DNA of 64,000 nt. Origin: a candidate division FCPU426 bacterium. GTDB taxonomy: Bacteria; Oederibacteriota; JAJYGY01; DAIDJD01. The notes under the pieces are model-generated. The model saw only the letters and a list, made by a program, of their open reading frames with translations. It searched no databases and was not told where the DNA came from. The translations under genes and the position numbers were made by a program. Below are positions 727-19,006 of the stretch, piece by piece (position 1 is the stretch's first letter; the number at the start of each line of letters is the position of its first letter). The stretch is from contig DAIDJD010000092.1 in the NCBI GenBank assembly GCA_027451505.1, positions 17,588 through 81,587 of the forward strand, written 5' to 3'.

Positions 727-2445
727 ATGGATATCTCCGACCGGAACCTGGAACGCCTCATAGAACGGTTCCACCTCCTGGACCCGGCGCAGTTGGCGGA
801 GGCGCGCCTCGAGATGGAGAAGTCCAAGAGCGGAACGGGCCTCCAGAGCGTTTTGCTCAACCTGGGATACCTCAAGGAGGAGGACCTCCTCAGGGCCTCG
901 GCCGAACACTTGGGCATCCCCTACGTGGACGTGGAAGGCCTTTCCCCGGAGCCCGCCGTGGTCCTCCTGGTGCCCGAGGAATTGGCCTTGTCCAAGGGGG
1001 TTCTGGCGCTGGAGCGCCAGGGCCAGCAGCTCGTCTGCGCGATGCAGGACCCCAACGACGTGGTGACCCAGGACCTCATCCAGAGGCGGGCCAGGGTCAC
1101 GGTGGTGCCCCATCTCGCGGCCCGCGGCGCGATCCTGAAGAAGCTCGCGGACTACCACGACCACTACAAGGTCGCGGTGGTCGAGCACCTGATGAAGACC
1201 GTGCGGGACCAGGGCCGCGAACTCACCCAGCAGATCGGGCTCAACATCCAGAGCATCGAAAGCGTCACGGAGCAGGCGCCGATCATCCGGGCGGTCAACC
1301 TCATCATCATCGGGGCGCTGCTCAAGCGCGCCTCGGACATCCACCTGGTGCCCGAGAAGCAGACGCTCAAGGTGAAGTACCGGGTCGACGGGGTGCTCCA
1401 GGACGAGCAGTCCCTCAGCATGGCGGACGCTCCGGCGGTGATCGCGCGCATTAAGGTCATGTCCAAGCTCGACATTTCCGAGCGCCGCCTGCCCCAGGAC
1501 GGCGCGTTCCAAATCCTTCTGGAGGGCCGCGAGATCGACTTCCGCGTGGCGGTGACCCCCACCATCTTCGGGGAGAAGATGGTCCTGCGCGTCCTCGACA
1601 AGAGCGGCATCGTGCTGGGCCTGGACCACCTCGGCTTCGGCGCGGACCAGCTCCGGGGCTTCAAGCAGCAGATCCACCGGCCCCACGGCATCATCCTGAT
1701 CGTCGGCCCCACGGGCAGCGGCAAGACCACCACGCTGTACGCCGCGCTCAACATCCTCAACACCGGCGACAAGAACATCACGACGGTCGAGGATCCCGTG
1801 GAATACAAAATCGAGGGGCTCACCCAGATCCAGACCCACTCCGAGATCGGCCTGGATTTCGCGGCGGCGCTGCGCAGCATCCTGCGCCAGGACCCCGACG
1901 TGGTCCTGATCGGGGAGATCCGCGACCAGGAGACCACCGAGATCGCCGTGCGCGCGGCCCTCACCGGCCACCTCGTGTTCGCCACGCTGCACACCAACGA
2001 CGCGTCCTCGGCGGTATCCCGGCTCACCGAGATGGGGGCCGAGCCTTTCCTGGTCGCCAGCGCCCTGCGCTGCGCGCTATCCCAGCGCCTCGTGCGCAAC
2101 ATATGCCCGCAGTGCCGCGAGTCCTACGACCTTCCCGCGGAACTGGCCCCGCGCCTGAGGGATTCCTTCGGAAACCTTCCGCCGGCGGGCACCAAGCTGT
2201 GGCGCGGCCGCGGCTGCAACTACTGCTTCCATACCGGGTACCGGGGGCGCAGCGCCGTGAGCGAGCTCCTGGTGGTGGACGAGGCCATCCGCGGCCGCAT
2301 CGCGGCCCGCGGCTCCAGCGTGGAGATGCAGAGCTTGGCCCTGGCTGCCGGCATGAAGTCGATGTACCAGGATGGCGTGGATAAGGTGCTTAAGGGCGTC
2401 ACCACCCTCGAGGAGATCCTCGAAGTGGCGGAGGATCTGGCCTGA
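727..2445 (+). CDS. gspE: type II secretion / type IV pilus assembly ATPase (GspE/PilB family)
   Basis: N-terminal T2SSE_N-like region, Walker A GPTGSGKTT, Asp/His boxes, C-terminal tetracysteine CPQC...CNYC zinc motif typical of GspE/PilB. Confidence 0.85.
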   Translation: MDISDRNLERLIERFHLLDPAQLAEARLEMEKSKSGTGLQSVLLNLGYLKEEDLLRASAEHLGIPYVDVEGLSPEPAVVLLVPEELALSKGVLALERQGQQLVCAMQDPNDVVTQDLIQRRARVTVVPHLAARGAILKKLADYHDHYKVAVVEHLMKTVRDQGRELTQQIGLNIQSIESVTEQAPIIRAVNLIIIGALLKRASDIHLVPEKQTLKVKYRVDGVLQDEQSLSMADAPAVIARIKVMSKLDISERRLPQDGAFQILLEGREIDFRVAVTPTIFGEKMVLRVLDKSGIVLGLDHLGFGADQLRGFKQQIHRPHGIILIVGPTGSGKTTTLYAALNILNTGDKNITTVEDPVEYKIEGLTQIQTHSEIGLDFAAALRSILRQDPDVVLIGEIRDQETTEIAVRAALTGHLVFATLHTNDASSAVSRLTEMGAEPFLVASALRCALSQRLVRNICPQCRESYDLPAELAPRLRDSFGNLPPAGTKLWRGRGCNYCFHTGYRGRSAVSELLVVDEAIRGRIAARGSSVEMQSLALAAGMKSMYQDGVDKVLKGVTTLEEILEVAEDLA

Positions 2446-4661
2446 TGTCCCTGGCCGCCGAGATTATGGCCGCCCTCGCGGCGCGCCCCGAGGGCCTGAG
2501 CCGGGCCGAGCTTTTGCGCGAACTTGGGCTTCCGCGCCGCCTGGGGTCCAAGCTCGAGGCCGACCTGGGGCGCTTGGTCGATTCCGGACGGGTGGCCCGC
2601 GACGCGCGCCACCGCTACCGGGCGGCTGCGTACCGGGCCGGCACCGGGGATCCGGGGTGCGAGGCCACCTTCATCCTTACCTCATCGGGGAGCGCCTTCG
2701 CCCGGATGGATTCCGGGGCCGAATTTTTCGTGCCCGAACGCCTGCGGGGTTGGGCCCTGCCCGGGGATCGGGTGGCCCTGAGGCCCCGCCCGGAGCCCGC
2801 CGTCCGCGCGGCGCCCCCGATGCGCGGCAGGCGCGCGCGGGCGGCCCCGACCGACGCGCCCGGACGCAAACCCGTGGCCGAGGTCACCGGGGTCCTGAAG
2901 CGCGGCCGGGAGCGCTGGGTGGGTCGGCTGCGCCGGGAGGGGGGCGCCTGTTTCAACGATGTGCGCCTGGGGGACCTGGAGCTCGAGCTGGAGCTGGATC
3001 CCGACGCGGCGCCGCCGGCCGGGACCGCGGACGGCGAGTGGATCGTCAGTTCCGCTCCGGGGCTGGACGGGTCCGGGCGCGAACCCGCCCCTTCCCGGTT
3101 CCTGAGCCGGCTGGGGGGGGACTCGACGCCCCACCTGGACACGCTGATCCTGGTGAACAAGGCGGGGCTGCGCGAAGCCTTCCCCGAGGCGGCCCTGAGG
3201 GAGGCCTCCGCCTGGGGCGGCGAGGTCGAGCCCGCGGCGCTGGAGGGCCGCCTGGACCTGCGCGCCGGTGTCGTCGTCACCATTGACGGAGCCGACGCCA
3301 AGGACTTCGACGATGCCGTATCCGTGGAGAGGACCCCCACGGGATGGCGCCTGGGGGTGCACATCGCCGACGTCTCCCACTACGTCCGCCCGGGGACGGC
3401 CCTGGACGGCGAGGCCTACGCGCGCGCGACGAGCGTGTACCTGCCGGACCGGGTGCTGCCCATGCTTCCGGAGGCCCTCAGCAACGGCCTGTGCTCCCTC
3501 AACCCGGGGGTGGATCGCCTGACCCTGAGCGCGTTGATCGAGTCCGACGCGCGCGGGCGCTTGGGGCGGGCCTCCTTCGCCCGCAGCGTGATCCGGTCGG
3601 CGCGCCGTTGCACCTATGAGGAGGTCGAGGATTTCCTGGATGGGCGCGCCGACCTGGCCGGCCCGGGCACCGGGGCCGTGGGCCCTGCCCTGAAGGACAT
3701 GCGCGAACTGGCCCATCTGCGGCGGGCGCTGAGGGAGGAGCGCGGGGCGCTGGACTTCGACTTTCCCGAGACCAAGGTGACCCTGGACGCGGAGGGACGC
3801 CCCACCGCGCTCCTGCGGAGGGCCCGGTTGTTCTCCCACCAGCTCATCGAGGAGTTCATGCTGGCGGCCAACGAGGCCGTGGCCCGGGAATTGCGGTCCC
3901 GCGGGTTCCCGCTGCTGTACCGGGTGCACGAGCGTCCGGACCAGGAAAAGCTCGCCGAAACGCTGGCGCTCTTCGGGCGCCTCAAGCTGGGGGGCGGCCC
4001 CCGCGGCGCGTCGGTGACCCCCAAAGACCTCCAACGCATCCTGGAGCGCGCCCGGGGGCTTCCCCAAAAGCGCCTGGTGGAGACCCTGCTCCTGCGCAGC
4101 CTTAAATTGGCGCGCTACAGCGCCGACCACGACATCCATTTCGCCCTGGCCCTAGAGGATTATTGTCACTTCACCTCCCCGATCCGGCGTTACCCCGACT
4201 TGGTCGTGCACCGGATGTTGGCGGCCTTCCTGGGGGGGGCGTCCCCCGCGGATGCGCGGGGACAAACCGGGCCCCTGGGCGAGGCCGGGATCCACTGCTC
4301 GGAGATGGAGCGCAAGGCCGAATCCTGTGAGCGCGACTGCGTGCGCGCCAAGCAGGTGCGCTACCTCGAGGAGCGTCTCGGCAGGGTCTATCCCGCCACC
4401 GTGGTCTCGGTGACCCATTTCGGCTTCTTCTGCGAAATCGACCCGTTCCCCGCGGAGGGCTTGGTGCCCTTGGGGGGCTTGTCCGACGACCACTACGACC
4501 ATGACGCGGCCAACCACGCCCTGGTGGGGCGCGCCTCGGGGCGCGTCATCACGATCGGCGACAAACTTTGGGTCCGTGTGCTGCGCACGGACTGGGAACT
4601 CCTGAGGGCCGACTTTGAGGCCCTTTGGAGGGAGCCCGAGGAGGGAGTCTCCGCCTCCTGA
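2445..4661 (+). CDS. rnr: ribonuclease R (RNB-family 3'-5' exoribonuclease with C-terminal S1 domain)
   Basis: RNB catalytic motif VVTIDGADAKDFDDAVSVE, cold-shock/S1-like C-terminus; start overlaps gspE stop (TGATG). Confidence 0.9.
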   Translation: MSLAAEIMAALAARPEGLSRAELLRELGLPRRLGSKLEADLGRLVDSGRVARDARHRYRAAAYRAGTGDPGCEATFILTSSGSAFARMDSGAEFFVPERLRGWALPGDRVALRPRPEPAVRAAPPMRGRRARAAPTDAPGRKPVAEVTGVLKRGRERWVGRLRREGGACFNDVRLGDLELELELDPDAAPPAGTADGEWIVSSAPGLDGSGREPAPSRFLSRLGGDSTPHLDTLILVNKAGLREAFPEAALREASAWGGEVEPAALEGRLDLRAGVVVTIDGADAKDFDDAVSVERTPTGWRLGVHIADVSHYVRPGTALDGEAYARATSVYLPDRVLPMLPEALSNGLCSLNPGVDRLTLSALIESDARGRLGRASFARSVIRSARRCTYEEVEDFLDGRADLAGPGTGAVGPALKDMRELAHLRRALREERGALDFDFPETKVTLDAEGRPTALLRRARLFSHQLIEEFMLAANEAVARELRSRGFPLLYRVHERPDQEKLAETLALFGRLKLGGGPRGASVTPKDLQRILERARGLPQKRLVETLLLRSLKLARYSADHDIHFALALEDYCHFTSPIRRYPDLVVHRMLAAFLGGASPADARGQTGPLGEAGIHCSEMERKAESCERDCVRAKQVRYLEERLGRVYPATVVSVTHFGFFCEIDPFPAEGLVPLGGLSDDHYDHDAANHALVGRASGRVITIGDKLWVRVLRTDWELLRADFEALWREPEEGVSAS

Positions 4662-4795
4662 ACCGGAACTTCGGGCGGTTCCCCGCATCCGCCTGGATCT
4701 GGCCCACCCCGGCCCTTTCGCCGCGCCAAGCGGGGCTCGGGACTCGCGCCTTGCCAATGCCGATGCCCTTGAGCAAGGTGAGGCGCCACCAAGCC

Positions 4796-4824
4796 TTGTA
4801 TGGATTATGGCAAAGGGTTATACT
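4796..4824 (+). promoter_or_regulatory. candidate sigma-70 promoter TTGTAT-N17-TATACT in an AT-rich island upstream of the sigma-54 activator gene
   Basis: hexamers read directly at 4796-4801 and 4819-4824 with 17-nt spacer; local GC far below the window average. Confidence 0.35.
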
Positions 4825-4867
4825 GAATTAGTTTCAAAATGGAACACCAAAACGTCTTTGATAGGCC

Positions 4868-5980
4868 ATGACCCAAACCATCACCTCCATCGTCCCTGTG
4901 CCCCCCGCTTCGGCATCCCTTGGGGCCGAAGCGGGACTGCCCGTGTTGGGGCAGTCCCCGGGCATCAAGCGCGTGCTGAACCTGGCCCAAAAGGTGGCCC
5001 CCACGGACAGCCCCGTGCTCATCACCGGCGAGACCGGCACGGGCAAGGAATTGATCGCCCGGATCATCCACGCGGCCTCCCGACGGGCCAGGGGACCGTT
5101 CGTGGCGGTCAACGCCGGGGCCATCCCTGAGAATCTGCAGGAGAGCGAACTCTTCGGCCACCACAAGGGCGCCTTCACCGGGGCCGTGGCGGACCGCCGC
5201 GGCCTCTTCGAGGAGGCCGATGGCGGCACGTTGTTCCTCGACGAAATCGGCGACGCCAGCCCTGGGCTGCAGGTGAGGCTCCTGCGGGTCCTTCAGAACG
5301 GCAGCATCCGTCGTGTGGGTGAGAGCGTGGAGAGGCCGGTGGACGTTCGCTTGGTCGCCGCGACCAACCGGGTCCTGGAGCGCATGGCCGAACGAGGGGA
5401 GTTTAGGGAGGACCTGTTTTTCCGGCTCAACGTCGTGCACCTGCATCTGCCGCCGCTTCGGGAGCGGGGCGAGGACTTGGACCTCCTCCTGCGGGCCAAT
5501 CTGGCGCGGTTCGCCGAACGCCTGCGCAAGGAGGTGCGGGGATTCACCGCGGCGGCCTGGGACGCCCTGCGCGCCTACTTCTACCCCGGCAACATCCGCG
5601 AATTGGAGAACATCGTCCACCACGCCGTTCTCATGGCCGAGGGTCCCGAGGTGGAACTGTCCGACCTGCCGCCATACCTTAAGGCGAGGCTGGCCCTGCC
5701 CGCTCCGGAGCCGGGTCCCTGGAGGGAGGTCGCGCCTTTGGAGGTGCCCCGGGAGGCCTGGGGCAGGCCGGGTTCGCGTCCGGCCGCCTCCGAGTCCGCG
5801 TACGTGGCGCCCCACGTGGATCTGGGGGACGGCTTCCTGAGCATCTCGGACATGGAAAAGCAGCTCATCTCCGCCACCCTGGGAAGGCTCAAAGGGAACC
5901 AGAGCGTGGCCGCCCGGAAGCTGGGTGTGAGCCGTTCCACGCTGTGGCGCAAGATGAAGGAATATGGACTCCAGGCCTGA
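4868..5980 (+). CDS. sigma-54-dependent transcriptional activator (bacterial enhancer-binding protein) lacking an N-terminal sensory/receiver domain (PspF/HrpS-like architecture)
   Basis: AAA+ sigma-54 interaction domain with GETGTGKE Walker A, ESELFGHHKGAFTGA (GAFTGA loop), C-terminal Fis-type HTH QSVAARKLGVSRSTLWRKMKEYG; only about 40 aa precede the AAA+ core. Confidence 0.85.
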   Translation: MTQTITSIVPVPPASASLGAEAGLPVLGQSPGIKRVLNLAQKVAPTDSPVLITGETGTGKELIARIIHAASRRARGPFVAVNAGAIPENLQESELFGHHKGAFTGAVADRRGLFEEADGGTLFLDEIGDASPGLQVRLLRVLQNGSIRRVGESVERPVDVRLVAATNRVLERMAERGEFREDLFFRLNVVHLHLPPLRERGEDLDLLLRANLARFAERLRKEVRGFTAAAWDALRAYFYPGNIRELENIVHHAVLMAEGPEVELSDLPPYLKARLALPAPEPGPWREVAPLEVPREAWGRPGSRPAASESAYVAPHVDLGDGFLSISDMEKQLISATLGRLKGNQSVAARKLGVSRSTLWRKMKEYGLQA

Positions 5981-7229
5981 GGAAGGCATCGCCCGGGGAG
6001 GCCTGACCCTGGCCCGGGCCAGGGAAGCGCTCAAAGATTGGCAGGGCCATATGCGGCGGGGGGCCGCCTTGCCCAGCGAGGACGAATACGTCGCGGCTTT
6101 GGCCCTGGTGCCGTGGCTGCCCCAGCCCGGCGTCTATCTGGCCCGCACGCTGCGCGCCTTCGCCGATTTCTGTTCGGCCCAGGGCCGGCTGGACGACGCC
6201 GTTTCCCTTTTGGCGCGCATCGCCGAGGGGCCCGGGCGCAAGAGCGAGGTTTTCTGGCGCGACTACGCCGTGCTGCTGTTCCGCCAGGCGCTCAAGCGCC
6301 TGGCCGCCGGGAGGGTGGCCCAGTCCAATGAATCCCTGGGGCGGGCCGCGGCGCTGTTGAGGGGCCCGGCCGCCCTTCCCGAGGTCTGGAACGCGGCCTG
6401 GGAAGGCTATTCCGAAATGGCGCTTTGGTTCGAGCGCGCCGGCGATGCGCTTCCGGCGCGCCTGCACGCGGAACACGCGCTGGAGTACGCCCAGCGCTGC
6501 GGCCGCCGAGAAGAGGCCCTGGAGTGGCTTCGCCGCCTGGCCCAAGCGGCCCAGCACGGCAGGGGCGCCTTCGCCGCCTTGGACTGGCTGCGCCGCATGC
6601 ACGCCTTGGGGCGCGAAGGTTGGACAGGAGCCGGGGCATTCGCGGTGCGCAGCGCCGTGGGTTTGGCCCAGGCCGAGGCCGCCTTGGGACGGGAGGCGGG
6701 CATGGACGCCATCTTCCACGAGGTGGAGACTTGGCTGCGGGAGCCTCCGTCGGACCTCCTGGCCTTGGCCGATTTGAACTTGGCCTGGGGCCTGGTCTTG
6801 GGACTTGAACGGGGCCGGGAACGCCTCGAACAGGCCCATCGGTTGCGTTCCACCGCGTTGGGTGAAGACCATCCCAAGACCCTCGAAGCCTTCCGGGCCC
6901 TGGGAGGATGGCGCCAAGAGGACACTGGACCTTCCCCAGGGACGGACTCCGGCCCACGCGAATGGGACGGTGGCGCAAGATTCGAAGGACCCAAAGACTC
7001 CGGGGGGGAATCCCAGGAATCCGAATTGAAGCGACTCCATCGGCGTTTGGCGCGGCTTTGCCACCCGGACGCCGGGTTGGATGACGCATCCGAGAGCGAA
7101 ATCACTTGGCGCCACGAAACCATGATCCGGGTGAATCGGGCGGCCGAGTCCGGGAACCTATTTTTACTGCGCGCGCTGTTGGATGAGGCGCTTTCCAGGA
7201 TGGGCACCGGCAAACAAGTCCCGCTTTGA
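5964..7229 (+). CDS. hypothetical helical (TPR-like) protein with a C-terminal J-domain-like segment
   Basis: C-terminus LKRLHRRLARLCHPDAG...ITWRHETMIRVNRAAESGN resembles J-domain helices II-III with the HPD tripeptide; start overlaps the activator gene stop by 17 nt; GC falls in the last ~400 nt. Confidence 0.5.
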   Translation: MDSRPEEGIARGGLTLARAREALKDWQGHMRRGAALPSEDEYVAALALVPWLPQPGVYLARTLRAFADFCSAQGRLDDAVSLLARIAEGPGRKSEVFWRDYAVLLFRQALKRLAAGRVAQSNESLGRAAALLRGPAALPEVWNAAWEGYSEMALWFERAGDALPARLHAEHALEYAQRCGRREEALEWLRRLAQAAQHGRGAFAALDWLRRMHALGREGWTGAGAFAVRSAVGLAQAEAALGREAGMDAIFHEVETWLREPPSDLLALADLNLAWGLVLGLERGRERLEQAHRLRSTALGEDHPKTLEAFRALGGWRQEDTGPSPGTDSGPREWDGGARFEGPKDSGGESQESELKRLHRRLARLCHPDAGLDDASESEITWRHETMIRVNRAAESGNLFLLRALLDEALSRMGTGKQVPL

Positions 7230-7236
7230 GGTGAGC

Positions 7237-7632
7237 ATGGCTATCAAACCTTGGTCTTTGGGAACTCTGATTCGCTTGCGTTGCCCAGTGTGCGGCGAAG
7301 ACACGTTCAAAACCGGGTGGTTCCAAACGGCTTCGGCCTGTAGAGCCTGCGCCACGGTTTTTGAGGAAGAGGATGGGTTTTATGCTGGAGCGATCTATCC
7401 TATGTATGGAATGATCGCAGGGTTGGGAGCTTTGGGCATGCTCCTGGGATGGCTTTTGGGGCTTTCATTTGAAAAAAGCCTATTTATGGACGGATTTATT
7501 ATTATTTTGGCATCTCCGTGGCTTTTCCTGTATTCAAGAATACTTTTTTTGTATACCCATCATAGATTTTTCAAAAACTTCGATGGTCCTGCTGAGTCGG
7601 CAAGCGAGGTAAAGGTAAAAAGAGAAGGATAA
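7237..7632 (+). CDS. DUF983-family zinc-ribbon membrane protein
   Basis: CPVCGE...CRAC zinc ribbon followed by DGxxF and two hydrophobic helices, matching the DUF983 pattern; the 3' half is strongly AT-rich. Confidence 0.5.
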   Translation: MAIKPWSLGTLIRLRCPVCGEDTFKTGWFQTASACRACATVFEEEDGFYAGAIYPMYGMIAGLGALGMLLGWLLGLSFEKSLFMDGFIIILASPWLFLYSRILFLYTHHRFFKNFDGPAESASEVKVKREG

Positions 7633-7644
7633 GGGTGGGTGGCC

Positions 7645-7695
7645 GGGTTCAAGCGCGGCGATGGATGGTGCGCAGGGGTTCAAGGGGTTCTTGAA
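7645..7695 (+). promoter_or_regulatory. candidate enhancer (UAS): direct repeat GGGTTCAAG x2, and inverted repeat TTCAAG-gggtt-CTTGAA at 7679-7695
   Basis: repeats read directly; centred about 125 bp upstream of the sigma-54-type promoter at 7813-7828. Confidence 0.3.
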
Positions 7696-7812
7696 ATCCC
7701 GGGGGCGCATATCTTTTCGTTTTTAAACACTTCATTGCGGTTGTTTGATTTTAGATCCATCTTTGCTTCGAAATGAAATTAACAAAAATACATATAACCT
7801 TTTAAATATAAA

Positions 7813-7828
7813 CGGCACGGTCCTTGCG
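7813..7828 (+). promoter_or_regulatory. candidate sigma-54 (-24/-12) promoter CGGCACG-gtcc-TTGCG upstream of dnaK
   Basis: GG and GC dinucleotides separated by exactly 10 nt, with extended match to TGGCACG-N4-TTGCW; about 50 nt upstream of the dnaK start; preceded by an AT-rich tract. Confidence 0.4.
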
Positions 7829-7880
7829 TGATATCCAGGCATACCAGTTCCATTAAGGATTCGAAAGCGAGGCGACATTC

Positions 7881-9800
7881 ATGGGAAAAATCATCGGCAT
7901 TGATCTGGGGACCACCAATTCCTGCGTGGCCATCATGGAAGGCGGGGAACCCAAGGTCATCAACAATTCCGAAGGCAATAGGACCACTCCTTCGGTGGTG
8001 GGTTTCGCCAAGGACGGTTCCCGGCTGGTGGGCCAGGCCGCCAAGAGGCAGGCCGTCACCAATCCCGAGAATACCGTGTTCTCGGCCAAACGGTTCATCG
8101 GTCGGCGCTTCAACGAGGTCCAGGCCGAGGCCAAGCGCATGCCTTTCAAGGTGGTCGCCGCCGACAACGGGGACGCCGCCATCGAGATCAAGGACAAGCG
8201 CTACGCCCCCCCTGAGATCTCGGCCATGGTGCTGCAGAAGCTGAAGGCCGACGCCGAGGCCTACCTCGGGGAGCCCGTGACCCAGGCCGTGATCACCGTG
8301 CCGGCCTACTTCAACGACAGCCAGCGCCAGGCCACCAAGGACGCCGGAAAGATCGCCGGCCTCGAGGTCCTGCGCATCATCAACGAGCCCACCGCGGCGT
8401 CCCTGGCCTACGGCTTGGACAAGAAGGGCAAGAACGAAAAGATCGCGGTCTACGACCTGGGCGGGGGCACCTTCGACGTCTCCATCCTGGAGATCGGGGA
8501 TGGCGTCTTCGAGGTGCGCGCCACCAACGGGGACACGCACCTGGGCGGCGACGACTACGACGAGGTCGTGCTCGAGTGGCTGGCCTCCGAGTTCCAGAAG
8601 GCCGAGGGCATCGATCTGCGCAAGGACCGCATGGCCCTGCAACGCCTGAAGGAGGCCTCGGAAAAGGCCAAGATCGAGCTCTCCAGCGCCGCCTCCACGG
8701 ACATCAACTTGCCGTTCATCACCGCCGACGCCACCGGGCCCAAGCACCTCAACGTGAGCCTGAGCAGGGCCAAGCTGGAGCAGTTGGTCGCGGGGCTGAC
8801 CGACCGCACCAAGGGCCCCTGCCAGCAGGCCCTCAAGGACGCCGGCCTTTCGGCCTCGGAGATCGACGAGGTGGTGCTGGTGGGCGGCATGACGCGCATG
8901 CCCAGCGTGGTGCAATACGTCAAGGAGCTCTTCGGCAAGCAGCCCCACCAGGGGGTGAACCCCGACGAAGTGGTGGCCGTGGGCGCCGCCATCCAGGCCG
9001 GCGTGCTCAAGGGCGAGGTCAAGGACGTGCTGCTGCTGGACGTCACCCCGTTGAGCCTGGGCATCGAAACCGAGGGTCGGGTGTTCACGAAACTGATCGA
9101 GCGCAACACCACGGTGCCGACCCGCAAGAGCCAGGTCTTCAGCACGGCCAGCGATAGCCAGCCCTCGGTGGAGGTGCATGTGCTGCAGGGCGAGCGCCCC
9201 ATGGCCTCGGACAACAAGACCATAGGACGCTTCCACCTCGACGGGATCCCGCCCGCGCCCCGGGGCGTACCCCAGATCGAGGTGACCTTCGACATCGACG
9301 CCAACGGCATCCTGGCGGTGAGCGCCAAGGACCTGGGCACGGGCAAGGAGCAGAAGATCACCATCACCGCCAGCTCCGGGCTCGCCAAAGACGAGGTGGA
9401 GCGCCTCGTCCAGGAGGCCAAGGCGCACGAGGCGGAGGACAAGAAGCGCCGTGAGGCGGCCGAGGTCCGCAACCACGCCGAGAGTCTGGCCCATTCCGTC
9501 GAGAAGACGCTCAAGGACCTCGGCGACAAGGTTCCCGAGGATAAGCGCAAGGACCTGGAGGCCCAGGCCGCCGCGCTGCGCGAGGAGCTCAAGAACGAGT
9601 CCGACGCGGAGGCGCTCAAGCGCAAGGCCGACGCGTTGGCGGAGGCCATGGCGGCGGTCTCCGAGGAGTTGTACAAGAACGCCAAGCCCGAAGCCGCTCC
9701 CGGCGGCCCGGATGGCGGGCCGGCCCAAGCCGGCGCCGCGGCCGGGGCCAAGACCGTCGACGCGGATTTCGAGGTCGTGGACGAGAAGAAAAAGGACTGA
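7881..9800 (+). CDS. dnaK: molecular chaperone DnaK (Hsp70)
   Basis: [25 protein letters not shown], full Hsp70 ATPase and substrate-binding domains; RBS GAGG upstream. Confidence 0.97.
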
Positions 9801-9833
9801 ACACCATCACCGCAGCAAGGAGGAACAACACGT

Positions 9834-10124
9834 ATGAAACTGCGTCCGCTCAACGATAAGATCGTGGTCAAGCCGATCGAGGCCGAGGAAACCGTGAAGG
9901 GGGGCATCATCATCCCCGACAACGCCAAGGAGAAGCCCCAGCAGGCCGAGGTGGTCGCCGTCGGCCCCGGAAAGCTCCTTGAAAACGGCAACCGGGTCGT
10001 CCCCGGGGTCAAGCCGGGGGAACGGGTGCTTTACTCCAAGTACAGCGGCAGCGAGTTCAAGGTCGGCGGCGACGAGCTTCTGGTCCTGGACGAGGGCGAC
10101 ATCCTGGCCGTCGTCGAGAAGTAG
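9834..10124 (+). CDS. groES: co-chaperonin GroES
   Basis: 96 aa, [13 protein letters not shown]...GGIIIPD canonical Hsp10; only 33 nt after dnaK. Confidence 0.95.
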
Positions 10125-11843
<1,719 letters not shown>

Positions 11844-11852
11844 GAGTCCCCT

Positions 11853-11891
11853 GGGGGACCCGCCGGATTGCCGGCGGGTCCCCTTCATTTT
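11853..11891 (+). terminator. rho-independent terminator after groEL
   Basis: perfect 13-bp stem GGGGACCCGCCGG / CCGGCGGGTCCCC with ATTG loop, followed by TTCATTTT. Confidence 0.8.
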
Positions 11892-11903
11892 CCACCCCGT
11901 CCG

Positions 11904-11930
11904 GGAACTTTCCCGGGCGGGTCGTGCGTC
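11904..11930 (+). promoter_or_regulatory. candidate ECF (sigma-E-like) promoter GGAACTT-N16-CGTC upstream of the ABC/GldG/CbpA/HtrA gene set
   Basis: motif read directly; GGAAC -35 is typical of group-4 sigma promoters; downstream cluster ends with htrA, a classic envelope-stress gene. Confidence 0.25.
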
Positions 11931-12041
11931 CGGTGGGTTGGGATTCGTACGTGACGTCTTGCGCCCGGCGACCGGGCCTTCCGGACCCGGGCGCCGCCAA
12001 GGCCCGCCCGGAGCCGACTACCACGCGGGGGTTTCCTGCTT

Positions 12042-13022
12042 ATGATCGAAGTCAGCGGTCTGACCAAGGAATACGGCGCCTTCAAGGCCGTCAAGGGCGT
12101 CAGCTTTTCGGTGGAGCGCGGCCAGATCCTGGGCTTCCTGGGGCCCAATGGGGCGGGGAAGAGCACGGTGATGAAGATCCTCACCTGCTACCTGCCGGCC
12201 ACCTCGGGACGGGCCGGCGTCGCCGGCTTCGACTGCGAACTGCAGGCCCGTGAGGTGCGCAAGCGCATAGGCTACCTGCCCGAGAACAACCCGCTTTACC
12301 TGGATATGCGCGTCGGCGAATACCTGGACTTCGCGGCCCACGCCAAGGGGATCGCGGGGCCGTCCCGCAGGGCCGCCGTGGCCCGGGTCTGCGAGGAGAC
12401 CGGTCTGGGGTCCGTCACGGGACGCCTCATCGGGCAGCTCTCGAAGGGCTTCCGCCAGCGCGTGGGCCTCGCCCAGGCCCTGGTGGGTGATCCCGAAGTG
12501 CTCATCCTGGACGAGCCCACCGTGGGCCTGGATCCCCGGCAGATCCTTGAGATACGCAACCTCATCCGTTCCATGGCGGGGCGCCGCACCGTCGTGCTGT
12601 CCACCCACATCCTCCCCGAGGTCAGCGCGGTCTGCGACCGCGTGGTGATCATCAACAAAGGCTTGGTGGTGGAGCAGGACAGCACCGCCAACCTCGGCCG
12701 CAAACTGGCCAAAAGCGACCGGGTCCAGGTGGGCGTCGCCGGCCCCGGCGAGGAGGCCCGGATCCTGTTGGGCGGGCTTCCCGGGGTCCAGCGGGCCCAG
12801 GTGCGCTCCGAAAGCGAAGGCGTCGCGGTGCTTGAGGTGGAGAGCACCAAGGGGACGGACCTCAGGGCGGACATAGCCCGGGCTGTGGTGTCCAAGGGTT
12901 GGGGCTTGGTCGAGCTCAAGGCCTTGGGGCTGGGCCTCGAGGAGGTCTTCCTTCAATTGGTCACCCAGGACAGCGAACACGCGGCCGCGGAGACGGCCGC
13001 GGTCACGGAGGCGGCGGCATGA
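12042..13022 (+). CDS. ABC transporter ATP-binding protein (ABC-2 subfamily)
   Basis: Walker A GPNGAGKST, signature LSKGFRQR, Walker B LILDEPTVGLD. Confidence 0.85.
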   Translation: MIEVSGLTKEYGAFKAVKGVSFSVERGQILGFLGPNGAGKSTVMKILTCYLPATSGRAGVAGFDCELQAREVRKRIGYLPENNPLYLDMRVGEYLDFAAHAKGIAGPSRRAAVARVCEETGLGSVTGRLIGQLSKGFRQRVGLAQALVGDPEVLILDEPTVGLDPRQILEIRNLIRSMAGRRTVVLSTHILPEVSAVCDRVVIINKGLVVEQDSTANLGRKLAKSDRVQVGVAGPGEEARILLGGLPGVQRAQVRSESEGVAVLEVESTKGTDLRADIARAVVSKGWGLVELKALGLGLEEVFLQLVTQDSEHAAAETAAVTEAAA

Positions 13023-13780
13023 CCACGAACCTTTACCCCATCTACCGGCGCGAGACCCGCGCCCTTTTCCTTTCCCCGGTGGCGTGGATCGTGCTGTTCG
13101 CGTTCTACTCCTTGGCCGGTTTTTTCTGGGTGGCCCCGCTGTCGCAGTACGCCTTCTATTCCGTCATGATGGCGGAACGCGGCCAGGTGATGAAGCTGGT
13201 GGACTACCTGATCGCCCCGTTCCTGGGGAACGTCACGGTCACCTTCATCTTCCTCCTGCCCCTGGTGAGCATGCGCCAGTTCAGCGAGGAGAAGAAGTCG
13301 GGGACCATTGAAACCCTCTTCACCTATCCCTTCAGCGACCTCGACATCGTCCTGGGCAAGTGGTTGGCGGCCGTCACGCTCCTGGGCGTGATGCTCCTGC
13401 CGCTGCTGATGGATTTCGGCTTGATCGCGGACAAGGTGGCCGTTCCCTGGCCCGTGGTGGCCACGGGGATGGCGGGGGTCTTCATGGTGGGCGCCTGCTA
13501 CTTGGCCGTGGGCCTGTTCACTTCGGCCCTGACGGAGAACCAGGTGGTCGCGGCGGCCCTGAGTTTCGGGGCCCTGCTGCTGCTGTTCGTGCTCAACTGG
13601 CTGGCCGCCTCGGCCAGCGGGTCGTTGCACGACCTCATCGGGCAGCTGTCGATCACCACCCACATGCAGGACCTCACCAAGGGGTTGCTCGCGCTCAAGG
13701 ACGTCACCTACTTCATCCTTTTCACCGCGTTCATGCTCTTCTGCACCCTGAGGGTGCTCGAGAGCAAGAAGTGGAGGTAA
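13019..13780 (+). CDS. ABC-2 type transporter permease
   Basis: about 250 aa, six predicted hydrophobic helices; ATGA overlap with the ATPase gene. Confidence 0.65.
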   Translation: MTTNLYPIYRRETRALFLSPVAWIVLFAFYSLAGFFWVAPLSQYAFYSVMMAERGQVMKLVDYLIAPFLGNVTVTFIFLLPLVSMRQFSEEKKSGTIETLFTYPFSDLDIVLGKWLAAVTLLGVMLLPLLMDFGLIADKVAVPWPVVATGMAGVFMVGACYLAVGLFTSALTENQVVAAALSFGALLLLFVLNWLAASASGSLHDLIGQLSITTHMQDLTKGLLALKDVTYFILFTAFMLFCTLRVLESKKWR

Positions 13781-13782
13781 GC

Positions 13783-15354
13783 GTGCGCCGGGAATACGCC
13801 AAGGCGGCCGGCTGGACCGCCCTCATCGCCCTCGCCTCCGCGGGCGTCACCTACGCCGTGCGGGGGATCGCGGACCTTTGGTTGTGGCTGCCCCTCGGCC
13901 TGGGCGTCGCGCTGGCGGCGGTCTGGGCGGCGGCCCTGGGTAGGGAAGCCTTCCAGGTGGTCTCCTCCCGGCGGGCGCGCCAGGGGGGACAAAGCCTGGT
14001 GTACGCGGCGGCCGTCCTGACCATCGTGCTCGTGCTGCAGTCCCTCGCCGTCAACAGTTCGGTGAGCGTCGACTTGACCAAGGACAAGGCCTTCACCCTC
14101 TCCGAGCAGACGGTCAAGACGGTGAAGGGGCTCACCCAGAAGGTGGAGTTCCTGGCCTTCTACGGGGCCAGCGCGCCCGGGCGCCCGGCCTTCGAGGATC
14201 TCCTGAAGCGCGTGCGCGCGCTGAATCCGGCCCGGGTCGGCTATGACTTCGTGGATCCGGTGCGCAAACCCCTGGAGGCCCAGGAGTACGGGGTCCGTGA
14301 GCAGGGGACCACGGTGGTGGTGTGCGGAGACCGCAAGGAGACCCTGACCGGATCGCAGGAGGAGGACCTGCTCAACGCCCTGCTCAAGGTCAGCGCGGGC
14401 CAGACCGAGAACGTCTACTTCCTCGCCGGCCACCAGGAGGCCGATCTGGGCGATTCCTCGGCCCAGGGCCTTTCCGGACTGAAGACCGCCCTGGAGTCCG
14501 ACTCCTTCCAGGCGAGCACGCTGAATCTCGCCACCGCGCCGGGCGGGGTGGTGCCCGAGGACGCCGCCGTCGTCGTCCTGGCGGGCCCCCGGACGGACCT
14601 CATGGAACCCGAGCTCAAAGCGCTCACCGATTTCCTGGGGCGCGGCGGCCGGATCTTCGTGGCTTTGGACCCGCGCGCCGAGGTGCCCAGGTTGCGGGCT
14701 TGGCTGGCCAAGGCGGGCATCGTCTTCGACAACGACATCGTCATCGACATGAACCCCTTCAGCCAGCTTTTCGGCGCCTCGCCGGTGGCCCCCATCGTCA
14801 ACTCCTTCGACGGCACCAATCCCGCGACCAAGGACCTTTCCCAGCAGCATGGGCAGGCCCTCTTCCCCCAGACCTCCGGCTTCAGCGAGGGAACCCTTCC
14901 GCCGCAGGCGGCCTACACGGAACTGGCCCGGACCCTGCCGACGGCCTTCGGCTGGACGGGCAAGGGCGACCGCGCGCCCACCCATCCGGGGCCCCGCGAC
15001 AAACGCGGGCCGGTGGCGGTCATGGTGTCGCTGCAGGCCCCGGTCAAGGACTTTGGGGGGGCGCCCAACGCGCCGGCGGACGAGAACGCGCGGCTGGTCG
15101 CGATGGGAAGCAGCGTGCCCCTGCAGAACCGGGCCGTGGGCGCCTTCAACAACCAGGACTTGATCGTCAACAGCCTGCGTTGGCTTTCCGACCAGGACAA
15201 GCGCATCGCCCTGGCCCCCAAGCCCGTGGACAACCAGCCCCTGTACCTGAACCAGGCCCGGGCCCGCCTCATCCACTGGAGCGTGGTCCTCCTGGCCCTC
15301 GGCGCGCTCGCCGCGGGCGTGGCCGTGTCTTTGGCGCGCCGGAGGTCGGCATGA
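13783..15354 (+). CDS. GldG-like ABC transporter auxiliary component
   Basis: N- and C-terminal transmembrane anchors flanking a large periplasmic domain; gene order ATPase-permease-GldG-like; GTG start 2 nt after the permease stop. Confidence 0.6.
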   Translation: MRREYAKAAGWTALIALASAGVTYAVRGIADLWLWLPLGLGVALAAVWAAALGREAFQVVSSRRARQGGQSLVYAAAVLTIVLVLQSLAVNSSVSVDLTKDKAFTLSEQTVKTVKGLTQKVEFLAFYGASAPGRPAFEDLLKRVRALNPARVGYDFVDPVRKPLEAQEYGVREQGTTVVVCGDRKETLTGSQEEDLLNALLKVSAGQTENVYFLAGHQEADLGDSSAQGLSGLKTALESDSFQASTLNLATAPGGVVPEDAAVVVLAGPRTDLMEPELKALTDFLGRGGRIFVALDPRAEVPRLRAWLAKAGIVFDNDIVIDMNPFSQLFGASPVAPIVNSFDGTNPATKDLSQQHGQALFPQTSGFSEGTLPPQAAYTELARTLPTAFGWTGKGDRAPTHPGPRDKRGPVAVMVSLQAPVKDFGGAPNAPADENARLVAMGSSVPLQNRAVGAFNNQDLIVNSLRWLSDQDKRIALAPKPVDNQPLYLNQARARLIHWSVVLLALGALAAGVAVSLARRRSA

Positions 15355-16712
15355 AGGAGGGGAGCCGGACCCTGGTCGCCTTGGGGGCGGCCCTCGCGTT
15401 GGGGACGGGCTATTGGGTTTGGGCCGTGAAGATCCAGCCCCGGCGGGCCCAGGAGGCCGAGGACGCCAAGCTCCTGTTCAAGGGCCTCAACCCCGCAGGA
15501 ACCTCGGAGATCCTCCTGCGCAAGGCGGGCTATCCGGACGTGCTCCTGCGCAAGGTCCAGGGACAGTGGCGCCTGGTCACCCCGGTGGCCGCCCCGGCCG
15601 ATCCGGCCGCCGTGGGGGGCATCCTGACCCAACTGGAGCAGGCCAAACGCGGCGAGGTGGTTTCCGGACCGGGCACTACGCTGCGGGACTTCGGCCTGGA
15701 CCATCCCCGGGGGGCGGTGACCTTCAGCCCGGACACGCCCGGCGCCAAGGCCCAGGTCCTGTATTTCGGCATCGACAGCCCCCTCGGCGGCCAGACCTAC
15801 GCCGAGGTGGAGGGCCGTCCTGGGGTGTTCCTCACCGACCTCTACGTCAAGGACGCGATCCTCAAGGACGCGGGCCAGTTGCGGGACAAGACCGTGTGGA
15901 GCTTCCAGAGGGACGATGTCGTTTCCGTGCGGTCCGGGATCTCGGGGTTCACCCTGGAGCGGAACAAGGACGGCTTCTGGAGGGTGGTCGCCGGGGCGCG
16001 GAACGAGCCGGCCAAGCCAGACCAGGTGCAGCAGTGGTTGGACGTCCTTTCCAGCCTGCGCGCCGATTCGGTGCCCAGCGAGACCGGACGCGGGAAGTTC
16101 GGCCTGAAGGCGCGCGCGCGCTCGCTCACGGTCACCCTCAAGGGCGGCCAGGAGATGGTCCTGCGTGAGGGCTCCGAAGCCAAGCCCGGACCCGGATTCT
16201 ACGTCCAAGTGGCCGGCCAGGGGCCGGTGTACCAGCTCCCCGAGTACCAGAAGGCCCAGATCGAGAAGAAGGCCGACGGCCTGATGGACCTGGATGCCTT
16301 CGGTTTCGACACCTCCTCGGTGGGACGCTTCACCGTGGCCCGGCCCGGGCGCAAGACCCTCACGGCGGTGCGGGCGGACGGGGTGTGGGGCTGGGTCCCC
16401 GCGGCCCCTCCCAAGCCCGGCGTCCGTGCCTTCGACTTCCCCGGGTTCCTGGCTTCGCTGGCCCACACCCAGGTCCTGGGGCGCCTTCCGGACGCGGACA
16501 GGCCGGCCCACCCCGTGGCCACGGTCACCCTCTACGGGGATACGGGTGGGGTCCTGGAGACGGTTGAATTCGGGACGCGACGTGGCCCGGGGCAGGTGGC
16601 GACGAGCGCGACCAAGCACCAGGTGGTGGTGGTGCCCGTGAACCTTCTGGACGGGCTGCCCCAGCACGCCCCATCGGCGACCCCGGCTTTGACGCCGACG
16701 GCCGCGCGCTAA
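15351..16712 (+). CDS. DUF4340-like protein that commonly follows GldG-type genes
   Basis: N-terminal signal/anchor, then soluble domain; ATGA overlap with the upstream gene. Confidence 0.45.
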   Translation: MKEGSRTLVALGAALALGTGYWVWAVKIQPRRAQEAEDAKLLFKGLNPAGTSEILLRKAGYPDVLLRKVQGQWRLVTPVAAPADPAAVGGILTQLEQAKRGEVVSGPGTTLRDFGLDHPRGAVTFSPDTPGAKAQVLYFGIDSPLGGQTYAEVEGRPGVFLTDLYVKDAILKDAGQLRDKTVWSFQRDDVVSVRSGISGFTLERNKDGFWRVVAGARNEPAKPDQVQQWLDVLSSLRADSVPSETGRGKFGLKARARSLTVTLKGGQEMVLREGSEAKPGPGFYVQVAGQGPVYQLPEYQKAQIEKKADGLMDLDAFGFDTSSVGRFTVARPGRKTLTAVRADGVWGWVPAAPPKPGVRAFDFPGFLASLAHTQVLGRLPDADRPAHPVATVTLYGDTGGVLETVEFGTRRGPGQVATSATKHQVVVVPVNLLDGLPQHAPSATPALTPTAAR

Positions 16713-16724
16713 AGGGGGGACGCC

Positions 16725-17606
16725 GTGGCGGGGGGGGTGGCCGATCTCTACGCGGCGTTGGGCGTCCCCGAATCCGCCTCGGCCGAGGAGATCAAGAGGG
16801 CCTACCGGGCCCTGGCCAAGCGGTGGCACCCCGACGCCAACCCCGGCGACCGGGGTGCGGAGGAGCGCTTCAAGCAGATCGGCCAGGCCTACGAGATCCT
16901 GTCCGACCCCGACAAGCGGCGCCGCTACGACGCCCTGCGCCGTTCCCCGGTTCCCGAACCGGAGACCGGGGCGCCCCCTTGGGCCTCCTCCGGAGGGGCG
17001 GCCGCCTGGGGAGGCTCCGCCAGCGTGGAGGATTTGTTCTCCATGTTTTTCGGCTCCGGGGAGGCCGGGCCGGGGCCCTTCGGGGTGCCGGACCAGGGAG
17101 GGGACTTCGACAGCGAAGTCTGGGTCTCCTTCGAGGACGCGGCCCTCGGGAATCCGGTGACGGTGCGCCTGGAGGGAAGGCCCCAGCCGCTGAAGCTCAA
17201 CCTGCCGCCCGGAGCGGAAAGCGGGCTGCGGATGAGGCTCGCGGGCCAAGGGGCGCCCCGGCGGCGCGGGCGGCGGGGCGACCTCTTTCTCACGCTCAAG
17301 GTGCGCCCCTCGGAGCGTTTCAGCCGCAGGGGCCTGGACATCCACGGATTCGTGGAGGTGAACCTCGCGCAGGCCCTGTTGGGCGCGCGGGTCCAAGCCC
17401 CCACCCTGCGGGGAAGCGCGCGCGTCGGGGTGCCCGCCGGGACCCAGCCCGGGACCCTGCTGCGCCTTGCGGGCCAGGGCATCGAGGCCGAGGGCCGGCG
17501 GGGAGACCATTTTGTTGAGGTGCGGGTGAAGCTGCCCACCGACCTCGACGAGCCGGAAAAAGCGGCGATCTTGGGCATGGCCCGTCGCCGCGGCTGGGCG
17601 CTTTGA
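16725..17606 (+). CDS. DnaJ-class co-chaperone without zinc-finger domain (CbpA-like)
   Basis: J domain DLYAALGV...[13 protein letters not shown]...[14 protein letters not shown], Gly-rich linker, DnaJ C-terminal domains, no CxxCxGxG repeats. Confidence 0.8.
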
Positions 17607-17620
17607 GGAGAGGGTACGCC

Positions 17621-19006
17621 ATGAAGCTCCGATATGCACTGCTTCCCGCGTTGCTGCTCGGGGCGCCGCTGCGGGCCTCCTCGGTCGCCGGCCTCCCGAA
17701 CTTCCGCGACGTGGCCCGCAGGATCCGCCCGGCCGTGGTCAACCTTTCGGTGGTCAAGGACGTGTCCGAGGACCAGCAGGACCCCTTCGCCGGGCAGTTT
17801 TTCGGGCGGTTTTTCGGCCAGCAGGGCGGTCCCCAGCAGTGGTTCCAGCAGCGCAGCCTGGGCTCGGGGGTGATCATCGACGCCAAGCGCGGCTACATCC
17901 TCACCAACAACCACGTCGTCGAGGGCGCGGACGCGATCACCGTCAAATTCGCCGACAAGCGCGAGGCCAAGGGCACCGTGGTGGGGCGGGACCCCAAGAC
18001 GGACCTCGCGGTCGTGCAGGTCAAGGGCATGCATGGACTCGCCCAGGCCTCCTTCGGCGACAGCGACAAGGTTGAGGTGGGCGACTGGGTCCTGGCGGTG
18101 GGTTCGCCCTTCGGCCTGGAGCAGACGGTCAGCCATGGCATCATTTCGGCGAAGGGGCGGGTCATCGGTGAGGGCCCCTACGACGACTTCCTGCAGACGG
18201 ACGCCCCCATCAACCCGGGCAACAGCGGGGGGCCCTTGGTGGACATGGACGGCGACGTCATCGGCATCAACACGGCCATCACCACCCAGAGCGGCGGAAG
18301 CGAGGGGGTGGGCTTCGCCATCCCCAGCGACATGGCCCGCGGCATCTACCGGCAGATCGTGGAGCACGGCAAGGTCACCCGAGCCTGGCTGGGGGTCAGC
18401 ATCCAGGACCTCGATCCCGCCCTGGCCGCCCGCTTCGGCCTTCCGGCGGACTCCCCGGGGGTCCTCATCGCAGACGTGATGCCCAAAGGGCCCGCGCACG
18501 ACGCCGGCATCCGCCCCGGGGACGTCGTCCTCGCGTTCAACGGGAAGGCCATGGCGGACTCCCGGCAGCTCCAGAGGAATGTGGCCGGGGCGCCGGTGGG
18601 CCAGCGCGCGAGCCTCAAGATCTGGCGCGATGGTTCGGCGCGGAGCGTTTCCGTTGTTTTGGGGGACATGACCCAAAGCGATGCCGGCGGCGCCCAGGAC
18701 GCGGACGAGGAGCCCATCACCAGCCCCAAGTTGGGCGTGGATGTGCGGCCCCTGACCCCGGACGAGGCCAAGGGACATGGCGCAGGCGGCGTGGTCGTGA
18801 CCCGCGTGGACAGCGGCTCCGCGGCCGACAACGCCGGGCTCCAACCCGGGGACGTCATCCTGGAGCTGGGCAAGGACAGGGTGGCTGGAACGGACCAGTT
18901 TTCGTCCTTGGTGGCCGCCCTGAAGGCGGGATCCAGCGTGGTGGTGCGCGTCCGTCGTGACGGACGGAGCTTCTACGCGGCGCTGCAGGTACCCGGGGGC
19001 CAGTAG
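17621..19006 (+). CDS. htrA: periplasmic serine endoprotease HtrA/DegP/DegQ with two PDZ domains
   Basis: catalytic triad context (HVVEGA, DLAVV, GNSGGPL), two PDZ segments; signal peptide; RBS GAGGAGAGGG. Confidence 0.9.
   Translation: MKLRYALLPALLLGAPLRASSVAGLPNFRDVARRIRPAVVNLSVVKDVSEDQQDPFAGQFFGRFFGQQGGPQQWFQQRSLGSGVIIDAKRGYILTNNHVVEGADAITVKFADKREAKGTVVGRDPKTDLAVVQVKGMHGLAQASFGDSDKVEVGDWVLAVGSPFGLEQTVSHGIISAKGRVIGEGPYDDFLQTDAPINPGNSGGPLVDMDGDVIGINTAITTQSGGSEGVGFAIPSDMARGIYRQIVEHGKVTRAWLGVSIQDLDPALAARFGLPADSPGVLIADVMPKGPAHDAGIRPGDVVLAFNGKAMADSRQLQRNVAGAPVGQRASLKIWRDGSARSVSVVLGDMTQSDAGGAQDADEEPITSPKLGVDVRPLTPDEAKGHGAGGVVVTRVDSGSAADNAGLQPGDVILELGKDRVAGTDQFSSLVAALKAGSSVVVRVRRDGRSFYAALQVPGGQ

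Follow-up and report, generated by a model that had tools for sequence, protein, structure and literature searches.

The textbook cases of heat-shock control in bacteria are sigma-32, HrcA/CIRCE and HspR. Sigma-54 has a part in such control in Myxococcus xanthus, where the HsfA/HsfB system includes a sigma-54 activator that drives the heat-shock gene lonD; HsfA itself carries a receiver domain and acts as a response regulator under a histidine kinase, and no J-protein is known to take part. Here we describe a locus from a 64-kb stretch of DNA (below, the window) of an uncultured bacterium of candidate division FCPU426, from soil and peat, in which the gene of a sensor-less sigma-54 activator (enhancer-binding protein) overlaps the gene of a protein that joins a tetratricopeptide repeat (TPR) solenoid to a J-like domain, called TPR-J below. 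Both genes lie upstream of dnaK-groES-groEL, and we propose that they might together form a sigma-54 heat-shock switch.

As regards the activator, the closest described systems are PspF-PspA of the Escherichia coli phage shock response and HrpS-HrpV. These activators, like the one described here, consist of an AAA+ domain and a helix-turn-helix (HTH) domain with no regulatory domain in cis, and both are controlled in trans by a partner encoded nearby; at this locus, control in trans would be the corresponding arrangement.

As regards the target, a map of transcription start sites in Flavobacterium psychrophilum places sigma-54 promoters (SM4) before groESL, dnaK, grpE-dnaJ, lon, htpG and clpB, with no activator assigned (PMC9723704), and predictions show an enrichment of sigma-54 promoters at chaperone genes in Bacteroidota and Planctomycetota, with neither activator nor signal assigned (PMC12316311). 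Our locus resembles these regulons in having a -24/-12 promoter before dnaK; in them such promoters also precede groES-groEL and further heat-shock genes (PMC9723704, PMC12316311). It differs in that a candidate activator, its likely enhancer and a candidate regulator adjoin the target, and in that, within this lineage, the promoter was found only at the dnaK-groESL operon. Full-text searches of the literature turned up no account of an enhancer-binding protein that has a J-domain protein as its partner. As far as we found, a sigma-54-dependent chaperone operon is of an already known kind, and the sensor-less activator with a dedicated TPR-J protein is new.

The dnaK-groES-groEL operon and its sigma-54 promoter

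The genes are all encoded on the + strand, in the order GspE/PilB-type ATPase, RNase R, activator (4868-5980), TPR-J (5964-7229), DUF983-like protein, dnaK (7881-9800; Pfam HSP70, E 3.8e-272), groES (9834-10124), groEL (10194-11843) and terminator. The terminator, a strong intrinsic one with a 14-bp stem containing 12 G-C pairs (11853-11884, +), closes the dnaK-groESL operon. The order dnaK-groES-groEL recurs in the related loci L001, L004, L006, L008, L012, L013 and L016. The original prediction had placed the activator and its partner immediately upstream of dnaK-groES-groEL. Their upstream position on the same strand was borne out, and strict adjacency was not, as the DUF983-like gene and a 248-nt AT-rich intergenic region that follows it stand between the pair and dnaK.

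Within this intergenic region we identified a sigma-54 promoter, CGGCACGGTCCTTGCG (7813-7828, +; GG at 7814-7815 and GC at 7826-7827), which fits the consensus TGGCAC-N5-TTGCW and starts 68 nt before the dnaK ATG. The strict -24/-12 pattern occurs once in the window and once per locus, always 5' of dnaK. Since about 0.4 strict matches would be expected by chance in the window alone, as estimated from its base composition, it is conservation that carries the argument for the promoter. All 15 related loci whose sequence extends to dnaK have a corresponding site, which starts 63-69 nt ahead of dnaK in the 10 of them that were measured. In an alignment of six dnaK upstream regions, whose mean identity was 45%, only the GGCA and TTGC blocks (GGCA-N7-TTGC) were invariant among the upstream columns.

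The required sigma factor is encoded by the same genome, as the window also contains rpoN (56124-57656, +), recognised by the Pfam domains Sigma54_AID, Sigma54_CBD and Sigma54_DBD and by the RpoN box ARRTVAKYR. Control through a CIRCE/HrcA operator was considered and rejected, because no CIRCE element was matched in the window, and a scan of positions 4500-12100 for sigma-70-like promoters gave nothing at the threshold of the tool. The conserved promoter, the presence of rpoN and the lack of CIRCE or sigma-70 matches in these searches together indicate that dnaK-groESL is very probably sigma-54-dependent in this genome. It had been foreseen that the activator might turn out to control an unrelated regulon; what was found is a conserved sigma-54 promoter directly 5' of dnaK, which the original prediction had missed.

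Two other promoter candidates were discarded. A second -24/-12-like site inside the DUF983-like gene (TGGCATCTCCGTGGCT, 7508-7523, +) has two mismatches and is probably due to chance, as about 23 such sites are expected in the window, and TTGTAT-17-TATACT, picked by hand ahead of the activator gene, is too weak to be claimed.

An invariant, perfect 14-nt palindrome, ACAGCGCGCGCTGT, is present in 11 of the 15 dnaK loci, embedded in poorly conserved flanking DNA, with its start 94-133 bp upstream of the -24 element. Given its distance to the promoter and its absolute conservation, it is more readily taken for a putative enhancer, bound by a Fis-HTH activator, than for a terminator or an operator. 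We scanned 241 million metagenome records for the palindrome followed, after 80-110 nt, by the promoter; the scan returned four matches, all of the dnaK locus type, and no further regulon members. Semi-conserved AT-rich blocks, represented in the window by GCTTCGAAAT... and AACAAAAATACATAT (7765-7799, +), lie just 5' of the promoter, and alignments together with positions across the loci place them between the palindrome and the promoter. They might be bound by a DNA-bending protein.

In the 64 kb, a single sequence matches the palindrome with up to two mismatches, namely a one-mismatch copy, ACTGCGCGCGCTGT (7166-7179), which falls within the 3' end of TPR-J and lies 634-647 nt 5' of the -24 element. 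This copy coincides with codons for LLRALL, and its counterpart at the same coding position is degenerate in L001 and identical in L015. We do not claim it as the enhancer of the window, because coding constraint on LLRALL may account for it. No inverted repeats of at least 12 nt were found upstream of dnaK in the window, L001 or L004.

A sensor-less sigma-54 activator

The protein of 370 residues encoded at 4868-5980 (+) matches the Pfam families Sigma54_activat (PF00158, E 1.8e-69; residues 27-192) and AAA_lid_14, followed by a Fis-type HTH_8 domain (PF02954, E 1.5e-14; residues 326-366). The GAFTGA motif occupies residues 101-106, and the Walker motifs GETGTGK and DEIGD can be read in the translation. 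As there is no in-frame start codon further upstream of this open reading frame (ORF), at most 26 residues can precede the AAA+ domain. The earlier description of this protein, i.e. a full AAA+ sigma-54 domain with GAFTGA and a Fis HTH but almost no N-terminal regulatory domain, is thus upheld by the Pfam matches and by the 26-residue limit.

The ten orthologues that we aligned are all short (352-377 residues) and share 63-80% identity. GETGTGK, DEIGD and GAFTGA are invariant among them, with the exception of A/S at the second position of GAFTGA and of GAFTDA in L011, and all share the same HTH recognition helix, SRSTLWRKMKEYG. A linker of about 50 residues, otherwise variable, holds the conserved motifs PLEVPREAW..P and VDLGDGF. 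The whole orthologue group comprises about 60 cluster representatives, mostly of 320-380 residues, the shorter entries coming from small contigs.

Among NCBIfam models, those for NtrC, NifA and PspF match the activator in their central and HTH parts only, with scores below the equivalog cut-offs. It is not considered a PspF orthologue, as it scores 271 bits against the TIGR02974 cut-off of 443.55 and its operon is without a PspA-type protein. Below about 53% identity, receiver-domain regulators of the NtrC type are found mixed with sensor-less activators of other phyla. The latter include P0251, P0253, P0261, P0267 and P0278 (about 320-350 residues, 48-52% identical), from Chitinispirillales, Firestonebacteria and unnamed metagenome-assembled genomes, some of them present on many contigs; those of about 320 residues occur in Fibrobacterota and Firestonebacteria.

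The TPR-J partner protein

The ORF of the partner (5964-7229, +; 421 residues) begins 17 nt before the activator stop codon. Position 30 of the protein is an internal methionine, and among the residues ahead of it L14, T15, L16, W26, Q27 and H29 are conserved in at least 90% of the homologues. The conservation of the first 29 residues argues that the overlapping upstream start is real, and the overlap of this gene with the activator stop codon, noted at the outset, thus withstood closer inspection. A comparable short overlap of the two genes is seen in L001, L004, L012 and L016.

The TPR-J family consists of 33 clusters at 90% identity, all of metagenomic origin. AlphaFold2, run on the 33-sequence alignment, gave a model with a predicted local distance difference test score (pLDDT) of 88, which divides the protein into three parts. 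Residues 16-313 (nt 6009-6902, +) form a TPR-like solenoid. A disordered linker follows (residues 318-348, +), in which the alignment shows an invariant motif W334..G336 G337..F340 (nt 6963-6983). The C-terminal part (residues 351-416, nt 7014-7211, +) is a J-like domain of three helices.

NCBIfam matched no family on this protein. The Pfam family TPR_12 falls just short of its threshold in the window protein (27.6 versus 30.1 bits) and matches 32 of the 33 family members, with a best E of 2.2e-10. Foldseek searches with the full model returned TPR proteins at E of about 2e-4, the second in rank being human P58IPK/DNAJC3, which combines TPRs with a J-domain. The TPR profile search that had been proposed for this ORF therefore speaks for the solenoid, through the family-wide TPR_12 matches and the Foldseek result.

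A probable J-domain at the C-terminus

The C-terminal domain consists of helices 351-366, 377-396 and 399-416, and the AlphaFold2 model puts an HPD tripeptide in the first inter-helix loop. This tripeptide (H367, P368 and D369; nt 7062-7070, +) is invariant in all 33 homologues. It closes a strongly basic helix; K356, R357, R360, R361 and R364 are each retained by at least 90% of the members.

Profile methods connect this domain with J-domains, both directly and through intermediate sequences. PF00226 gives sub-threshold matches in 32 of the 33 family members (best E 0.0015) and is the only recurrent family other than TPRs. When a profile of the C-terminus was compared with the PDB, the best 32 or so matches were all J-domain chains, with helix II and the HPD in register and a best E of 0.0017. 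Alignment by hhalign to canonical J-domains, including that of the CbpA-like DnaJ encoded in the window, gave a probability of 72% and E 3.4e-5, again with the HPD in register. A search of 1.8 billion proteins with the C-terminal profile returned 1,734 at E of 1e-3 or below. In a sample of 61 of these, 53 were PF00226-positive at E of 0.01 or below (best E 1.9e-7), and one of the positive proteins, checked individually, passes the Pfam threshold.

Two results weigh against such an assignment or are neutral towards it. PF00226 fails its gathering threshold in the window protein (14.8 versus 27.8 bits), and helix I of the J-domain is absent. Fold searches returned no J-domains and lend the assignment no support. 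Taking both sides together, we consider it rather likely that the C-terminus of TPR-J belongs to a divergent J-domain subfamily, whose action on DnaK is predicted from the sequence. The original prediction of a helical protein ending in a J-domain-like segment thus holds in respect of the invariant HPD and the profile comparisons, and finds no support in the Pfam threshold and the fold searches. A lack of any J-domain match at the C-terminus would have spoken against it; the profiles do give such matches.

Conservation of the gene pair

Wherever a contig extends far enough, the activator and TPR-J genes share an operon (L001, L004, L006, L008, L011-L014, L016 and the P0028 contig, with the fragments L009, L015, L017 and L020). 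One species-representative genome carrying the TPR-J family is labelled candidate division FCPU426. The usual gene order is activator, a protein of about 520 residues (in some loci), TPR-J, DUF983-like protein, a LigT-type protein (in some loci) and dnaK-groES-groEL, often with a TMEM260-like gene ahead of the activator. In the clade to which the window belongs, the genes of the ~520-residue and LigT proteins have been lost and the activator and TPR-J genes overlap directly.

Even the distant locus L021 (45% GC), with a TPR-J of 32% and an activator of 58% identity, keeps the activator, ~520-residue, TPR-J and LigT genes together. A loss of this linkage in related genomes would have spoken against the pair; it was seen in none of the loci examined, L021 included.

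Does this linkage extend to the target? One could argue that the activator serves another regulon, that the sigma-54 promoter of dnaK answers to a different activator and that their proximity is historical. Several observations favour this view and count against a dedicated dnaK-groESL activator: ACAGCGCGCGCTGT is missing 5' of dnaK in the window, L001, L004 and L016, despite the unchanged HTH recognition helix; no dnaK lies on the contig that carries the activator/TPR-J cluster in L021, and no -24/-12 site was found there; and in L015 IS66 fragments follow the cluster. Against it stand the order of activator, TPR-J and promoter-dnaK, retained in 15 loci, the restriction of the palindrome and promoter combination to this locus type in the metagenome collection, and the uniqueness of the strict -24/-12 site within the 64 kb and within each locus. 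We therefore regard a separate regulon as very unlikely, and dnaK-groESL as the activator's target is, at the level of sequence, well supported.

With regard to the two exceptional contigs, L021 carries Sel1-repeat and Tex genes where dnaK is expected, and its genes for GspE and RNase R are broken up into several ORFs (L021:1-2935), probably by long-read frameshift errors. In the closest relative, L015 (68% identity), IS66 pieces (TnpB_IS66 and zf-IS66; L015:2319-3595) take the place of dnaK after the activator, TPR-J and DUF983 genes; they represent an insertion or an assembly break in a contig of 4.8 kb.

Neighbouring genes

The DUF983-like gene (7237-7632, +) encodes a small protein of 131 residues with a CxxC zinc ribbon and hydrophobic helices. 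Its match to Pfam DUF983 is sub-threshold (E 7.7e-4), and equally weak for the homologues of L004 and L006; tblastn detected it in L017-L020. The gene is retained 3' of TPR-J in most relatives. In the window its GC content is 0.46 (37-44% in the 3' half) versus about 0.68 for the adjoining genes, and the homologues in L016 and L004 also lie below their neighbours in GC. The 3' half of the window gene occupies the place taken by the enhancer in relatives.

The gene that most relatives have between the activator and TPR-J (L006:3699-5249, L008:6393-7991, L011:4405-5982, L013:4457-5992, L014:4473-6035 and L021:4114-5592) is absent from the window, L001, L004, L012 and L016. Its product of 492-535 residues has a signal peptide and an Fn3-like domain and matches no Pfam family; its C-terminal region, with ..FVY as the last residues, suggests an outer-membrane beta-barrel. 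It was considered as a paralogue of TPR-J and rejected, as it bears no similarity to it and looks like a secreted Fn3 and beta-barrel protein. Directly 5' of the activator, L006:447-2618, L008:3381-5270, L013:1253-3370 and L014:1260-3398 encode a TMEM260-N-like (glycosyltransferase-C-like) membrane protein with TPRs.

In most relatives, the DUF983-like gene is separated from the dnaK promoter by a gene for a LigT-type 2',5' RNA ligase/2H phosphoesterase (L001:11330-11878, L006:6834-7385, L008:9613-10164, L012:7608-8159 and L021:9281-9823); these proteins are 64-93% identical to one another, and the gene has been lost in the window. The palindrome ACAGCGCGCGCTGT starts 1-3 nt past the LigT stop codon in most loci with this gene, and further downstream in L011 and L014. 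Together with RNase R, a conserved neighbour, LigT hints at a link with RNA damage.

Upstream, the window contains the GspE/PilB-type ATPase (727-2445, +) and RNase R (2445-4661, +) genes, the latter separated from the activator by a gap of 206 nt. Downstream of groEL, positions 12042-19006 encode a GldA/F/G-like ABC system (ABC_tran, ABC2 membrane, ABC_transp_aux and DUF4340), a CbpA-like DnaJ (16725-17606) and an HtrA/DegP protease (17603-19006), the stop codon of the dnaJ gene overlapping the protease gene. The same order is found 3' of groEL in L001, at least as far as dnaJ. The wider locus, with its cbpA-like dnaJ and htrA, is a proteostasis island. The rpoN gene is followed by genes for a ptsN-like PTS EIIA-Ntr (58334-58798) and a CofD/YvcK-like protein (58803-60071), which is a classical rpoN neighbourhood. 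Two further long ORFs of the window, with good coding character and a third-position GC content of about 0.9, encode 810 (39449-41881) and 398 residues (30827-32023) and match no Pfam family at E 1e-5.

This setting allows another interpretation, in which TPR-J is a specialised co-chaperone that is merely co-expressed, e.g. serving clients connected with the operon's envelope genes, and in which the activator is constitutive or set by another factor, such as its own abundance, temperature, the DUF983 membrane protein or the secreted ~520-residue protein. The membrane and secreted proteins encoded in the operon of relatives (TMEM260-like, Fn3 and beta-barrel-like, DUF983) would agree with this, as would the surrounding proteostasis island and the fact that TPR-plus-J proteins such as P58IPK are ordinary chaperone adaptors. 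However, among the operon genes TPR-J alone accompanies the activator throughout the loci examined, in the clade of the window it is the sole remaining partner and translationally coupled, and a sensor-less activator would otherwise be without visible control. We consider this interpretation, in all its variants taken jointly, unlikely.

Proposed regulatory mechanism

Based on these observations, we propose that the activator is dedicated to dnaK-groESL and is restrained in trans by TPR-J and DnaK, forming a sigma-54 heat-shock switch; as a whole, we give this proposal an even chance. In the first step, which the sequence comparisons support well, the sensor-less AAA+ activator would drive dnaK-groES-groEL from the -24/-12 promoter at 7813-7828, acting in most relatives from the palindromic enhancer ACAGCGCGCGCTGT about 100-130 bp upstream.

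In the second step the co-translated TPR-J protein would control the activator in trans, as is suggested by the lack of a regulatory domain in the activator itself. The TPR solenoid or the WDGG..F motif of the linker would hold the activator, possibly via PLEVPREAW and VDLGDGF, and the J-domain, with its basic helix II and HPD, would load ATP-bound DnaK onto it. This loading would block formation of the active hexamer or dismantle it. In the third step unfolded proteins would titrate DnaK and the activator would be freed to raise the synthesis of DnaK, GroES and GroEL, by which a negative feedback would be closed. We infer the second and third steps, including the physical contacts and the sign of regulation, from the gene arrangement and domain content, and the feedback circuit is to be read as a plausible deduction. 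For its most specific form, a thermostat in which TPR-J delivers DnaK and keeps the activator inactive until unfolded proteins draw DnaK off, we would put the chances slightly lower than even.

Some considerations speak for caution. The extra operon genes of most relatives (those for the ~520-residue, TMEM260-like, DUF983 and LigT proteins) could supply the real signal, and the divergence of the J-domain, the lack of the palindromic enhancer in the clade of the window and the restriction of the system to a small uncultured lineage temper our verdict.

The sequence itself does not settle whether the partner acts positively or negatively. TPR-J might act positively, recruiting DnaK to fold, assemble or recycle the activator and thus being needed for activation, or the TPR protein might be an anti-activator like PspA or HrpV that is removed by DnaK. 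The gene linkage and the J-domain evidence are identical for such a role and for the restraint that we favour, and there is a precedent, as a dnaJ mutant of Herminiimonas arsenicoxydans loses the sigma-54/AoxR-dependent induction of aox (PMC2848651). On the other hand, a chaperone that activates its own synthesis without a brake would constitute a positive loop, which is unusual in the control of proteostasis. We think a positive role, both variants included, rather improbable.

If restraint by TPR-J and DnaK is confirmed, the activator would be the first chaperone-controlled bacterial enhancer-binding protein, and Hsp70, acting via a dedicated J-protein, would constitute a new class of input for AAA+ sigma-54 activators. 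It would also provide a lead to the regulators of the sigma-54 heat-shock regulons in Bacteroidota and Planctomycetota. As promoter, activator and a plausible chaperone-linked regulator adjoin one another in the window, with a likely enhancer in most relatives, the hypothesis can be tested in a heterologous host.

Comparison with known systems

The resemblance to PspF-PspA and HrpS-HrpV ends with the partner and the target. TPR-J consists of a TPR solenoid and a J-like domain and is not a homologue of PspA/IM30 or HrpV, and the target is dnaK-groESL and not the psp or hrp genes.

In its domain order, i.e. a TPR solenoid followed by a C-terminal J-domain, TPR-J is like human P58IPK/DNAJC3 and DNAJC7. 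There is no detectable sequence relationship to these proteins beyond the repeat and J motifs, the J-like domain of the bacterial protein is divergent and three-helical, and its genetic partner is a transcription activator.

The logic proposed here is that of sigma-32 with DnaK-DnaJ in E. coli, of HspR with DnaK in Streptomyces and of HSF1 with Hsp70 and DNAJB1 in eukaryotes, in which free Hsp70, via a J-protein, inactivates the factor that transcribes the chaperone genes and unfolded proteins titrate Hsp70 away. In the case of HSF1, Hsp70 takes the oligomeric activator apart. Unlike in these systems, the controlled factor would be an AAA+ enhancer-binding protein of sigma-54, and, unlike in the control of sigma-32, the J-protein, known here from its sequence, would be a dedicated, co-translated adaptor and not the general DnaJ. 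Should the proposal prove true, the locus would be a bacterial counterpart of HSF1-Hsp70-DNAJB1, and the logic of chaperone titration would have arisen independently on another transcription machinery.

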